Part shown: one piece after another, positions 1 through 5,044 of the stretch
How positions within the stretch are numbered: the stretch's first letter is position 1
Layout of the letters: each line of letters begins with the position of its first letter
Assembly: GCA_015057275.1 (NCBI GenBank)
Contig: SVEO01000008.1
Coordinates: forward strand, 5,594 to 69,593
Direction: 5' to 3'
Source: Lachnospiraceae bacterium
GTDB lineage: Bacteria; Bacillota; Clostridia; Lachnospirales; Lachnospiraceae
Length of the DNA stretch: 64,000 bases
Program-made: the position numbers and the translations under genes
The notes under the pieces: generated by a model
What the model saw: the letters and a program-made list of their open reading frames with translations, nothing else
What the model was told of the DNA's origin: nothing
The model's database searches: none

Positions 1-1
1 A

Positions 2-811
2 CTAGTGACGAAATACTGTGCAGAAAAACATGGCGGAATCACAAGAAAAGCAACGATATGGAACGCGGAAACGGCCAAGGGAAATGGTTATATTCCGGTA
101 AAAATGCACGATGCTAGACTGCAAGATGTGACACGCTATGGTGGAGTGACTGCAGTTTCTGTATCGGGATATTCTTTGGTGGAATATAGAGCAAATGGTG
201 CCTTGGAGAGAAGTTTAGAGTCAATTCCTGTGTATTTGGGACGTATTGATGATGTGGATGAAAAAATTTTAATTGCATATTTTTCAAAAATATTGCAAGA
301 AGAAAATCTGAAAAAGCAAATCACAGACGTTCGTATATGCAGAAAATTTATCCCAAGTGATTCATTGATTAAGTATAATGGATTTTATTATTATTTGGGT
401 GGAAAAAGTAATACTTCCATATGTATTACTAATGCTGTCGAATTGAAGATAGATTATGTTAAAATGAAGTATATAAAGCAAATAGAGAAAGCCTACACTA
501 CTTCCGAATATAGCAAAAAAGATAAGGATGGGTACGAAATTTTGACAAAGGAATGGAACTTCGATATCTATAAAACTATTTTAGAGAAATATGTAGATTC
601 GATATATAAATATCAGAAAGGGCCAGTACCAGGAATTATATTAAACAGCGCTAATATATTTAAGGAATTATCAGTAGAGCAGCAATGCTATATTTTGTTG
701 CAAATGATTAATTATTTAAAAGGTGGTGCTAGCGCAGATTTACAGTTACTTGGAGGGAAAAAGGAGTCGGGAAAGAATATTCTGTCATTAACATTTCAGG
801 AGGTGACTGCA
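2..811 (+). CDS. cas9: Cas9-like (type II CRISPR endonuclease) C-terminal / PAM-interacting region. The 5' end runs off the window. The 3' end appears truncated and has no stop codon of its own.
   Basis: The frame is open from the window edge. The motif order matches, by recall, the last third of type II-A Cas9: [18 protein letters not shown] vs SpCas9 [35 protein letters not shown] vs LPKYSLFELENGRKRML, and [20 protein letters not shown] vs LGAPAAFKYFDTTIDRKRY. The usual terminal QSxTGLYExxIDL segment is missing. The DNA is visibly AT-richer than the DNA after ~800. Confidence 0.55.
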
Positions 812-973
812 ATGAAGTATGTTTGCGATGTTTGTGGATGGATTTATGATGAGGAAGAGGGTGCGCCGGACATGGGCATTGAGCCGGGAACAAAATTTGA
901 AGATCTTCCGGACGATTTTTTATGTCCGTTATGTTCGGTAGGTAAAGATTTTTTTAGCGAGGTAGACGAATAA
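812..973 (+). CDS. Rubredoxin
   Basis: The 53-aa product has two Cys pairs ([13 protein letters not shown] ... [13 protein letters not shown]). AGGAGG at 798-803 lies 8 nt before ATG 812. The stop overlaps the next start (TAATG at 971-975). Confidence 0.9.
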
Positions 974-2082
974 TGGAGCAAAGAAAGGGTATCGCATTCG
1001 GCTTGCAGGAGCGATTGGCGTCAGGCAAGGAGTATTATGAAATTCGTCTGGAAAGTATCGGCGGGCTGGGCGCAAATTTATGTGGGAAAATGTTAGGTGA
1101 ATTGGGCGTTAGGTATTTGGATTTAAATAGCAGCAGCTTTTCCAGTTATGGCTCCGAGAAGACGGGCACGCCGGTCAAAGGCTTTATAAGATATTGTAAA
1201 AAAGACAAGGAAATCCGTGTACATTCACCGGTCATAGAGCCGGATTTACTGGTGATATTTCATCAGGCACTTTTAAAGGACAAATCGGTCTGGAAAGGGT
1301 GCACTCCGGAAACAGCAGTGATTATTGCTTTGGAACCAGGGCAAGAGCAGCCGGAAATAATGGGAGAACAATTTGGAACTTGTTACGGATTGGAAGCGCA
1401 GAGAATTGCTATGGAAACGCACTCAAGAATTAATGTGGTAATGCTTGGTGCAGCTTTAAAAGTCATGGGGATAGAGAAGCTGGCAGTTGGTGAGCAAATT
1501 TGTAAAGACACGCTCGGAAAGAAGTATCCGGATGCTCTAAAAGGTAATTTGGAAGGCATGAAAAGAGGGTATGAGGAAGTCAGAGAATTGCAGATAACCG
1601 TAAATCTGCAGCAGACGACAGGGCGAGGCAGTACCGAAACGTCCGAATGGGGTTATGCGACTGCACCCATTGGCGGCATCAATCCGAGGATTGGCAGTAC
1701 GGTAATCGCAGATTTATCGCCGTCCAGACAGGGGTACATTCCTCTTTTCATTAAGGAGAGATGTATCAACTGCGGACTGTGTCATTCGACTTGCCCGGAT
1801 ATGGTATTTCAGTTTGCAAAAGGTGAATATAAAGGCCGGGAGATGATGGTGAATCAGGGCTTAGATTATTACCACTGCAAAGGCTGCCTGCGCTGCGTGG
1901 ATGTCTGTCCGGTCGAAGCACTTGTGACAGGCGTTGAGGCTGAGCATGCCAACAAAGAGTATTTTATGCCGAATCAGGAGCTTTTGCGGATGCCGGAATA
2001 TTATGAAGAGGCAGGGCCGGATGGTTATATTACGTCGGAATCTTATTTGACAGAGAAGCGAATGGAAGGAGGAGAGGTATAA
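973..2082 (+). CDS. 2-oxoacid (pyruvate-type):ferredoxin oxidoreductase, fused gamma + delta (2x[4Fe-4S]) subunit
   Basis: The N-terminal domain is POR-gamma-like. The C-terminal part carries two ferredoxin motifs, CINCGLCHSTCP and CKGCLRCVDVCP. It is translationally coupled on both sides by TAATG overlaps. Confidence 0.8.
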   Translation: MEQRKGIAFGLQERLASGKEYYEIRLESIGGLGANLCGKMLGELGVRYLDLNSSSFSSYGSEKTGTPVKGFIRYCKKDKEIRVHSPVIEPDLLVIFHQALLKDKSVWKGCTPETAVIIALEPGQEQPEIMGEQFGTCYGLEAQRIAMETHSRINVVMLGAALKVMGIEKLAVGEQICKDTLGKKYPDALKGNLEGMKRGYEEVRELQITVNLQQTTGRGSTETSEWGYATAPIGGINPRIGSTVIADLSPSRQGYIPLFIKERCINCGLCHSTCPDMVFQFAKGEYKGREMMVNQGLDYYHCKGCLRCVDVCPVEALVTGVEAEHANKEYFMPNQELLRMPEYYEEAGPDGYITSESYLTEKRMEGGEV

Positions 2083-4259
2083 TGAAAAATCAAGTGATGG
2101 AATACGCTTCCGGAAATGAAATGGCTGCAATTGCTGTAAAGCAGATTGGCTATGATTTGATGGGTTATTATCCGATTACTCCTTCGACGCAGATTGCTGA
2201 AAATTTAGATATTATGCGTGCCAACGGAGAAACAGATTTAGTTATGATAGCGGCTGAAGGGGAGCATAGTGCGGCCGGCATTTGCTATGGTGCATCAGTG
2301 GCTGGCGGTCGTGTGATAAACGCCACGAGCGCCAATGGACTTCTCTATGCGATAGAACAGTTTCCGGTACAATCCGGCACCCGGTATCCGATGGTAATGA
2401 ATGTGGTGTGTCGAACAGTTTCGGGCCCATTGTCTATTAAAGGCGACCACAGTGATATTATGTACATTTTAAATGCAGGCTGGCCGATTTTATTTGCCAG
2501 CACGGTGCAGCAGGTATACGATTTTAATATTATTGCCTTAAAATTAGCAGAGCAGGTAAGGCTTCCGGTGGTGGTGGCTTACGATGGATTTTTTACCAGC
2601 CATCAAAAAGGGCGTTGTTATCGTTTCGCTGATGATGAGACTGTCCGAGAATATATTGGAGCAAAGCAGGAGGAATATCCATTTCTGGATTTTGAACATC
2701 CAATTACAGTAGGCTCTTATATGAATGAGCCGGATATTATTAATAACCGATATCAGCTGCATTTGGCCATGGAAGAGGCTGACCGTTTACTGCCGCAACT
2801 ATTTGCGTCTTATGAAAAGATTTCCGGAAGAGGGTATGGTAAGGTGGAAGGAACTGGCTGTGAGGATGCTCAAAATGTGTTGGTTCTTTTAGGTTCCTCA
2901 TATGATACGTCTATGGATGCGGTAGAGGAAATGCGAAAAGACGGGAAAAAGGTAGGTGCAGCGACATTACATGTGCTTCGTCCTTTCCCGGGAAAAGAGC
3001 TGTTTGAACTGTTTGGTCAGGCGGAAAACATTTTGGTGGCAGATCGACAGGACAGCTATGGCGCAGGCGGTGGAAACTTGTCGTTAGAGGTGCGTGCCGC
3101 CATGCAGAAGTATGGCAGTCAGGCAAAGATGAAAAGTCTGGTTTATGGCTTAGGTGGTAAGGATTTCTTCAAGAATGATGCAAAGACGATGCTGAATTGG
3201 GCGGCGGATTCTTCGAAGCCTGATTTTGATTATTATGGTGTGACACCGGGAGAAGGCTTGAATGTAGCAGATGAGCCATTATTTACACCTGTCAAGAGCG
3301 GTATAAAGGTAACCGGCGGCAGCTTAAATGCGTCTACTGCCATGCCGGGACGCATCGCGCCGGGGCATGGAGCTTGTCCGGGCTGCGGCATTCCGGTAAA
3401 CTTAAATCTACTCCTAAGAGGAATTGAAGATCCGGTTGTGTTCTTGTTCCAGACCGGCTGTGCGATGATTGTGACGACGGCATACCCAAGGACAAGCTTT
3501 AAAGTTCCGTATCTTCATAATTTATTTCAAAATGGTGCCGCTACCTTAAGCGGTGTGGCGGAAATTTGCTATCGTAAACAGCAAAAAGGAGAAATTCCGC
3601 CGGGAGATATCGTCTTCGTTATGGTTAGTGGAGACGGCGGTATGGATATTGGCATGGGTTCTGCACTTGGCACGGCACTGCGCGGCCACAGACTGCTCAT
3701 CTTCGAATATGATAACGGCGGATATATGAACACAGGTTATCAGCTTTCTTATTCTACGCCATTAGGCGCTAGAAGTTCGACTTCTCATGTAGGAAAAGAG
3801 CAATATGGTAAGACATTTTTCCACAAAGATATGCCGGGAATTATGGCGGCCACAGGAATTCCGTATGTGGCAACCGTGGCAGAATCCAATCCTGTGGATT
3901 TCATGAAAAAGGCAGCGAAGGCAGCGCATTATGCAAAGACGACCGGAACCGCCTATGTCAAGGCAATTTCCGCTTGCCCGTTAAACTGGAACGACAAGCC
4001 GGCGACCGAGCGAAAGGTCATTGAAGCCGCTGTCAACTGTTGTTATTTCCCATTGTACGAAGTTGAACAAGGTGTGACCAGACTTTCTTATGACCCGGAA
4101 AAGACCGGAAAGAAAATTCCGGTGCTGGACTGGCTTTCTATGATGGGAAGAACTAAGCATCTGCAGAAAGAAGAGTACCGACAAGTGGCAGAACGGTTGC
4201 AACAGGAAATTGATGCAAGATTTTACAAGTTAAAAATGAGAGCGGAGGGAAATCGTTAA
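2082..4259 (+). CDS. 2-oxoacid:ferredoxin oxidoreductase, fused alpha + beta (TPP-binding) subunit
   Basis: The N-terminal half is POR-alpha-like (YPITPSTQI). The C-terminal half has the TPP-binding GDGG motif (VSGDGGMDIG) and cluster Cys residues (GACPGCG). Confidence 0.8.
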   Translation: MKNQVMEYASGNEMAAIAVKQIGYDLMGYYPITPSTQIAENLDIMRANGETDLVMIAAEGEHSAAGICYGASVAGGRVINATSANGLLYAIEQFPVQSGTRYPMVMNVVCRTVSGPLSIKGDHSDIMYILNAGWPILFASTVQQVYDFNIIALKLAEQVRLPVVVAYDGFFTSHQKGRCYRFADDETVREYIGAKQEEYPFLDFEHPITVGSYMNEPDIINNRYQLHLAMEEADRLLPQLFASYEKISGRGYGKVEGTGCEDAQNVLVLLGSSYDTSMDAVEEMRKDGKKVGAATLHVLRPFPGKELFELFGQAENILVADRQDSYGAGGGNLSLEVRAAMQKYGSQAKMKSLVYGLGGKDFFKNDAKTMLNWAADSSKPDFDYYGVTPGEGLNVADEPLFTPVKSGIKVTGGSLNASTAMPGRIAPGHGACPGCGIPVNLNLLLRGIEDPVVFLFQTGCAMIVTTAYPRTSFKVPYLHNLFQNGAATLSGVAEICYRKQQKGEIPPGDIVFVMVSGDGGMDIGMGSALGTALRGHRLLIFEYDNGGYMNTGYQLSYSTPLGARSSTSHVGKEQYGKTFFHKDMPGIMAATGIPYVATVAESNPVDFMKKAAKAAHYAKTTGTAYVKAISACPLNWNDKPATERKVIEAAVNCCYFPLYEVEQGVTRLSYDPEKTGKKIPVLDWLSMMGRTKHLQKEEYRQVAERLQQEIDARFYKLKMRAEGNR

Positions 4260-4423: not shown

Positions 4424-5044
4424 ATGAATATTACACAATGGACGGAAAGAGTACACAACAGAGCCGATATCGTGACACGGCTTACGCATCTGACAAGAGC
4501 AACTGAATCCATGGATGCTTTGGAGGTGTTAGTAAAAATTCTTGAGGATAAAAGGCTAATCGGAAGCACGACGCAGTCGGGCTATATTGTTGGAAATACA
4601 CCGGCAGTATGCCTTCAAGAAACACCATTAGAAGCTCTGGCCGCACATATACGATATGAGAATGAATCGTTTGGGCAGATTGATAAGTGCGATGTAAGAT
4701 ATTCGGGAATCGGAATCCGATTTAACAAGGTCTTTGTTTACAGAAGCGGCGGCCGACCGGTGATATATGATAAAACAGAATATCTGAAATCTATTTTACC
4801 GGAAGAACAGTATTGGAGAATTGTAAATTTTGATTTGGATAACAATGAAAATTGCATAGATTGGACGCATGAGCGGGAATGGAGAGTACCGAACGAATTG
4901 GTGTTTGATTACGATAAAATTGAATTGATATTTCCGACCGACGAGGTGTACCGAAGATTTGTATCCTACTGCGAAGAGAATAATAAAATACATATCATGA
5001 AAGAAATACATGGAATTTTGATTTTGTCAAGTATTGTGAGTTAG
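4424..5044 (+). CDS. Hypothetical protein, AbiGi-like (abortive-infection family) architecture
   Basis: The layout recalls the AbiGi family: an N-terminal helper region, PAVCLQETPL, GIGIRFNKVFVYRSGGRPVIYD, and a late HEREWRVP motif. This is based on recall only, and no partner AbiGii-like gene is present. Confidence 0.35.
   Translation: MNITQWTERVHNRADIVTRLTHLTRATESMDALEVLVKILEDKRLIGSTTQSGYIVGNTPAVCLQETPLEALAAHIRYENESFGQIDKCDVRYSGIGIRFNKVFVYRSGGRPVIYDKTEYLKSILPEEQYWRIVNFDLDNNENCIDWTHEREWRVPNELVFDYDKIELIFPTDEVYRRFVSYCEENNKIHIMKEIHGILILSSIVS

Follow-up and report, generated by a model that had tools for sequence, protein, structure and literature searches.

Type II-A loci, their known losses, and the locus examined

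Among the nearest homologues of the locus described here, the canonical type II-A layout of the Streptococcus pyogenes type is represented by three intact loci (L039–L041), which carry cas9, cas1, cas2, and csn2 in this order together with an array, and in which a tracrRNA gene lies antisense upstream of cas9. The repeat of these intact loci is GTTTGAGAACCTTGTAAGTTTGTAAAGGTGTAAAAC, present in 62 copies in one of them. The best relative of solved structure is FrCas9 from the type II-A system of Faecalibaculum rodentium (PDB 9jwk and 9jwn), which aligns with residues 3–1360 of the protein here at E = 0 and shares its domain order (RuvC, bridge helix, REC, HNH, and PI, the PAM-interacting domain). 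In FrCas9, Q1334 is a residue that contacts the PAM (PMC12926199). The loss of such systems by deletion is documented as well, for example as an escape from self-targeting (PMC6990116; PMC3630108). In losses of this kind, cas genes, the array, or both disappear in one deletion, and a stump is left behind, often with an intact tracrRNA.

The locus examined here departs from these deletions in that nearly the whole of cas9 survives, the break falling within its last 29 codons, and in that the remainder is joined in frame to a metabolic gene. It is found in the 1.88-Mb genome (30 contigs, 95% complete) of a gut-type bacterium and was analyzed from a window of 64,000 nt, which corresponds to C25:5594–69593; positions given without a contig name are those of this window. 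It is probably the scar of one step, a deletion or another illegitimate recombination, by which a type II-A CRISPR-Cas9 locus was put out of action. The metabolic gene is a rubredoxin at the head of an operon for a 2-oxoacid:ferredoxin oxidoreductase (POR), and counterparts of this operon, with the rubredoxin free-standing, occur in uncultured Lachnospiraceae (L034, L037, and L038).

A Cas9 without its C-terminal tail

The open reading frame (ORF) starts at C25:2364, 3.2 kb upstream of the window, and stops with TAA at 971–973, comprising 1,400 codons in 4,203 nt; within the window, the frame is open without interruption from 2 to 973. Extension upstream therefore recovers a cas9 that is otherwise full length. 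The complete product matches the PADLOC Cas9 model (E = 8.5e-235) and contains, in standard order, the Pfam domains Cas9-BH, Cas9_REC, HNH_4, Cas9_RuvC, and Cas9_PI, and the RuvC-I, HNH, and RuvC-III motifs are intact, readable as DMGTSSVGWA, DIDHIYP, and NNYHHAHDAY, respectively. The nuclease, REC, and PI domain set of the Cas9 family is present, and the complete C-terminus of the PI domain, with its LIxQSxTGL...(I/V)(D/N)LL strands, is absent.

The 3' end of the truncated gene, which encodes the PI domain, occupies 2–787 on the plus strand, and the Pfam, PADLOC, and 9jwk matches together with 42 full-length homologues indicate that 1,339 Cas9-derived codons have been kept. The 270-aa translation of 2–811 matches Cas9_PI strongly (E = 1.1e-40), covering profile positions 6–240 of 265 only. 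The first-pass annotation, which read the first ~810 nt as a Cas9 C-terminus, was accordingly right about the domain and slightly wrong about its extent, as alignment to the 42 homologues ends at GKNILS, window 787, and 788–811 is a rubredoxin leader. Its further observation that the ORF never reaches the terminal QSxTGL segment is borne out: past the junction column, each of the 42 full-length homologues has another 29 residues, neither more nor fewer, with this segment among them, and none ends at the equivalent of window ~800. The missing tail has the consensus KKISnAeEvvLIhQSVTGLFraEIDLLtV, and its conservation (3.11 bits per column) exceeds that of the remaining PI domain (2.78).

The anatomy of what is lost can be read from an AlphaFold model of the PI domain of the nearest intact homologue (299 residues; mean pLDDT 81, above 90 over most of the core). 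Two β-strands, 279–284 and 291–295, fall inside the missing tail, and a third, 267–270, lies just before the junction, so that, as modeled, the truncation takes away the last two β-strands of the PI domain. Given the loss of these terminal strands and of any crRNA source, the truncated Cas9 is probably crippled. The alignment with FrCas9 extends to chain residue 1339 of 1372; if only the Cas9-derived part is aligned, it ends at the equivalent of residue ~1341, and the octapeptide LTFQEVTA plus a 53-aa rubredoxin stand in place of the terminal strands. Since FrCas9 Q1334 aligns with the E of GGKKESGKN in the protein here, the loop that reads the PAM has been kept, and the break follows it by a few residues.

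The rest of the gene appears healthy. No stop, frameshift, or other sign of decay is found in the retained 1,339 codons, and at the 240 columns that are invariant among 43 homologues, the protein has two conservative differences (I669V and K1237Q), ranking 15 of 44, which is typical. Because the retained cas9 is free of decay, the event looks recent; either it is so, or the gene is still constrained.

The rubredoxin–POR operon

The rubredoxin gene lies at 812–973 on the plus strand (53 codons plus TAA), in the frame of cas9 and with an RBS and ATG (812–814) of its own. It is complete, matching PF00301 at 47/47 positions (E = 1.7e-23) and the NCBIfam rubredoxin model (E = 1.9e-24), and it contains both iron-binding knuckles, CDVCG and CPLC, that characterize the family. 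Its stop overlaps the start of the next gene (TAATG), which encodes at 973–2082 (+) a 369-aa POR subunit made up of a POR gamma domain and a 2×[4Fe-4S] domain (Pfam POR and Fer4). The large subunit of 725 aa, with POR_N, PFOR_II, and TPP_enzyme_C domains by Pfam, is encoded at 2082–4259 (+) and is the last gene of the three-gene module shared with the relatives.

In L034, L037, and L038, a free-standing 53-aa rubredoxin with 78–82% DNA identity heads the same operon, the module as a whole being 77–80% identical in DNA, and the TAATG overlap recurs in L034. POR-subunit homologues at 80–84% identity are common in assemblies of uncultured Lachnospiraceae, and distant POR operons of other families (45–50% identical) have no rubredoxin. 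DNA homology to the relatives is limited to the module (L001:6393–9844, which is window 800–4251), and the flanks differ in every relative. The module of the relatives is preceded either by a flavodiiron-protein gene across a gap of 28 nt, as in L034, or by an intergenic region of ~295 nt, whereas here it is cas9 that lies beyond 24 nt. The deletion might be thought to have taken a flavodiiron-protein gene as well, given the layout of L034, but a homologue of that protein, 52% identical, is encoded on C17 of the genome here.

With its native upstream region gone, the redox operon presumably needs transcription from upstream. The promoter of cas9 may now serve it, or else a cryptic one within the AT-rich cas9 sequence, although this is a guess. 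In a promoter scan, promoter-like sites were no commoner than in shuffled sequences, with none convincing near the junction, and the same holds for the intergenic region of a relative. In L037, the region upstream of the module contains a palindrome, CCGTATACATTGCATAATATACGG, at L037:6732–6755, 45–70 nt upstream of the rubredoxin start, which is a candidate operator of the rubredoxin–POR operon; the counterpart of this region is missing here.

Directly after the operon lies an ORF of 206 aa (4424–5044, +), whose matches to Pfam Pox_D5 and DUF2971 are below threshold. An earlier description of this ORF as AbiGi-like finds no support as a defense assignment, given the sub-threshold Pfam matches and the lack of any match in PADLOC.

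The junction and the reading frame

The recombination junction is located at 787/788 on the plus strand, between TCA (Ser), the last codon with homology to Cas9, and the first base of the rubredoxin leader. By comparison with the leaders of L034, L037, and L038, homology on the rubredoxin side starts at 788, ~24 nt before the ATG, and thus directly adjoins the last Cas9 codon. The leader remnant of 24 nt (788–811, +), TTAACATTTCAGGAGGTGACTGCA, contains AGGAGG at 798–803, yields LTFQEVTA when translation continues from cas9, and aligns, with the ATG that follows, to the leader of L037 and L038, ttaatttatggagggctgcaATG. As first proposed, the cas9 frame passes through AGGAGG to the in-frame ATG at 812 with no stop, and none is present before 812 in 10 independent assemblies.

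Of the three possible frames in which the 24-nt leader can be entered, a single one leads into rubredoxin; a second meets a TAA immediately (789–791), and the third comes to a stop after 20 codons. Even without any selection, one such join in three would thus be in frame, and chance suffices to explain it. We infer that the in-frame join is a coincidence and that the chimeric ORF most probably arose by accident. For the same reason, namely that deletions produce in-frame chimeras at a one-in-three rate, a domain combination in a single clone is no evidence of function. The combination has no parallel so far: among 49 Cas9 homologues, the protein here is the only one with a rubredoxin domain (PF00301), the rubredoxin motif is absent from the 67 long proteins among the best 150 matches in a library of 1.84 billion representatives, and no natural Cas9–rubredoxin fusion was found in the literature. 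Nor does the architecture recur in independent lineages, as all known copies are base-identical.

Base composition changes across the junction on the scale of genes. The cas9-derived part has a GC content of 36.6% (32% at third codon positions, GC3), similar to the cas9 genes of the homologues (34–36%, GC3 29–32%), and the values rise to 42% (GC3 37%) in rubredoxin and 46.5% (GC3 44–48%) in the POR genes, with 43.5% GC for the whole genome. The shift from AT-rich sequence to the local norm noted in the first-pass annotation is thus real between genes (36.6% versus 42–46.5%), but windows of 60 nt are too noisy for composition alone to place the switch at 790–800. For this reason, the junction was placed by homology.

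What remains of the CRISPR locus

That cas1, cas2, csn2, and the repeat array have given way to a rubredoxin/oxidoreductase operon is confirmed at the level of the genome, 95% complete, in which none of them was detected either upstream of cas9 or elsewhere. Pfam searches of the genome returned no match for cas1 (PF01867), cas2 (PF09827), or csn2 (PF09711), the csn2 family search having been run without a positive control. Searches by tblastn with the Cas1, Cas2, and Csn2 proteins of a homologue were likewise negative, and the positive control on L041 worked. The 36-nt repeat of the homologues has no copy in the genome at up to 9 mismatches; it should be noted that arrays may fail to assemble, so the absence of an array is not absolute.

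A k-mer scan raised array candidates on C3, C11, C22, and C23, all of which are tandem repeats with no unique spacers and were rejected as CRISPR. Those on C11 (35793–35970) and C23 (98536–98707) are at contig ends and share a 21-nt tandem repeat, GGTATCCGGCAATGCAnnG, which is oppositely oriented in the two and probably lies within coding sequence; they probably belong to one repeat-rich gene that broke the assembly. The other two, C3:57730–57950 and C22:86840–87100, each comprise about three tandem copies of a unit of ~100 nt that looks non-coding.

Compared with the canonical type II-A locus, then, cas1, cas2, csn2, and the array are lacking genome-wide and cas9 has lost its last 29 codons, whereas the antisense tracrRNA gene upstream of cas9 is shared. 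Subtype II-A is assigned by descent only, on the ground that the nearest homologues have csn2 directly behind cas2. The predicted tracrRNA gene runs on the minus strand from about C25:2303 to 2205, antisense and upstream of cas9, with the core of its anti-repeat 78 nt before the cas9 ATG compared with 71–74 nt in the three intact loci. Its elements follow in the order of anti-repeat, nexus-like AAGGAUUCAUCCG, short hairpin, and terminator hairpin with a T-run. It is ~97% identical to the copies of the homologues over 66 nt, and the stem of the terminator has been preserved through a compensatory change. The duplex of the anti-repeat with the repeat of the homologues has a predicted energy of −26 kcal/mol, compared with −8.9 ± 2.0 for shuffled sequences, none of 500 being as good. 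Just before the tracrRNA gene, on the same strand, is a promoter-like site, TTGACA-17-TAGTAT, with an upstream TG. The gene was found through the homologous loci; an Rfam scan of C25:1–7000 gave two unrelated matches below threshold and none to a tracrRNA or CRISPR-DR family.

Two further ORFs lie 0.9–2.1 kb upstream of cas9. One encodes a HIRAN-domain protein of 132 aa (C25:1101–1499, +; Pfam E = 1.6e-18), which matches the PADLOC candidate defense family PDC-M03B at E = 1.7e-15, and the other, overlapping it, a protein of 290 aa with a weak DnaJ-domain match (C25:269–1141, +). The cas9 remnant may be situated within a small defense island.

Origin of the chimeric gene

The interpretation of the locus as a deletion scar, put forward in the first-pass annotation, is supported by the junction, the missing genes, and the surviving tracrRNA, and the related loci agree with it, rubredoxin being free-standing in L034, L037, and L038 and the cas loci intact in L039–L041. 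According to this scenario, the left break would lie inside cas9, 29 codons before the natural stop, and the right break 24 nt upstream of the rubredoxin start codon, at the head of the operon. A single event would have removed the 29 codons of cas9, cas1, cas2, csn2, the array, and the native upstream region of the operon, leaving the antisense tracrRNA gene, a tail-less cas9, and an intact three-gene redox module. Ribosomes that translate cas9 would now run on into rubredoxin, yielding a chimera of ~160 kDa, and free rubredoxin could still be produced, as its gene retains an RBS and an ATG. Neither form of an ancestral allele, an intact cas9 followed by cas1 or a rubredoxin site that is still "empty", was found, and the Cas9s closest to this one among intact homologues are 63–68% identical; hence, a deletion in situ is deduced rather than observed. 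The only other genome compared from the same genus has neither cas9 nor the rubredoxin–POR operon, and no free-standing 53-aa rubredoxin of the exact sequence is on record.

Among the alternatives, the one that survives best, although it is unlikely, holds that a complete type II-A system was never present and that a foreign fragment with the tracrRNA gene and a cas9 lacking its 3' end recombined beside the rubredoxin operon, for example when sheared DNA was taken up or when the transfer of a defense island failed. The AT-richness of cas9, which resembles that of foreign homologues (36.6% versus 43.5% GC for the genome), its absence from the other genome of the genus, and the flanks of the rubredoxin–POR module, different in every relative, would all fit an import, as would the candidate defense protein with a HIRAN domain upstream, which suits a variable island. 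However, an import needs two illegitimate joins rather than one, the promoter-like sites, tracrRNA, and cas9 start are arranged exactly as in intact loci, and there would be little to favor the fixation of a fragment that brought no benefit. Both scenarios end in the locus as it is seen today, and the data thus do not distinguish an imported fragment from a deletion in situ.

It is very doubtful that the chimera is anything other than junk, although two roles can be envisaged. The cas9 frame and promoter could supply the redox operon with transcription and with ribosome traffic that protects it from polarity, or the truncated Cas9–rubredoxin, Cas9(deltaC)-rubredoxin, could form with the tracrRNA an array-independent, possibly redox-responsive, RNA-guided DNA-binding regulator. 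That a supposedly useless gene should show no decay at all over 4 kb would also be compatible with selection that continues to act on it. A fusion maintained by selection, whether as such a regulator, perhaps with the tracrRNA, or through the cas9 frame or promoter driving the redox operon, would account for 1,339 codons without a stop, a frameshift, or excess change at invariant sites, for catalytic motifs that are intact, for the retained loop aligned with FrCas9 Q1334, and for a tracrRNA whose promoter-like site and terminator are preserved; the operon, its native upstream region gone, would also require transcription from upstream. Nevertheless, the architecture is confined to one clonal lineage, the tail that was lost never varies in length, ranks with the better-conserved parts of the PI domain, and comprises two β-strands, one frame in three fuses by chance, and a recent event explains the intactness equally well. 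A new function under selection is accordingly highly improbable.

An artifact, in the form of a chimeric contig or a stop missed at the junction, might be suspected because the genome is a draft of 30 contigs and the contig of the window begins at a repeat where all assemblies break, but it is effectively refuted by 10 contigs with identical junction and gene, which come from different samples and two data sources and were built by different assemblers. The exact product of 1,400 aa has been called on 15 contigs of metagenome assemblies, and the 10 contigs compared, from seven JGI and three ENA samples assembled separately, are base-identical over the 4,203 nt of the gene, and some of these contigs reach as far as 2.3 kb upstream and 6 kb downstream of it. 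Such agreement between separate assemblies excludes misassembly or a missed stop for practical purposes; as the copies are clonal, they are silent on the age of the event and on selection.

Some features of the contigs deserve mention in their own right. The first 127 nt of C25 (C25:1–127) recur in inverted orientation at either end of C7, a contig of 5,594 nt, and at the end of C27. This points to an inverted repeat, 127 nt long or longer, on both sides of a segment that may invert or was left unoriented by the assembler; the ORFs listed for C7 are apparently housekeeping genes. The metagenome contigs all break at this point or within 14 nt of it. Near the end of L005, where it aligns with C25:7603–7848, the sequence changes to another POR allele, whose 48 mismatches mostly lie multiples of three bases apart, suggesting a co-occurring related strain. 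The first 105 nt of L006, upstream of C25:1689, are different in sequence, which hints at another junction on the upstream side or at a contig end that is chimeric.

Implications for the loss of CRISPR-Cas9

The locus is best regarded as an ordinary loss of CRISPR-Cas9 with an unusual-looking scar, a tidy case of a known process and no new kind of system. It offers a base-resolved snapshot of a dying CRISPR-Cas9, in which the memory, the adaptation genes, and the last two strands of the nuclease are gone and the 4-kb gene and the tracrRNA still look healthy. Annotation pipelines call the gene a "Cas9" of 1,400 aa, and it is so recorded in many metagenomes; the mining of Cas9 proteins should therefore check for the C-terminal motif and for the presence of an array. 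In addition, the redox operon, left without its own upstream region, is a natural case for promoter capture after a deletion. The surviving tracrRNA, for its part, predicts the repeat that was lost and opens the way to a direct test of the activity of the truncated enzyme.
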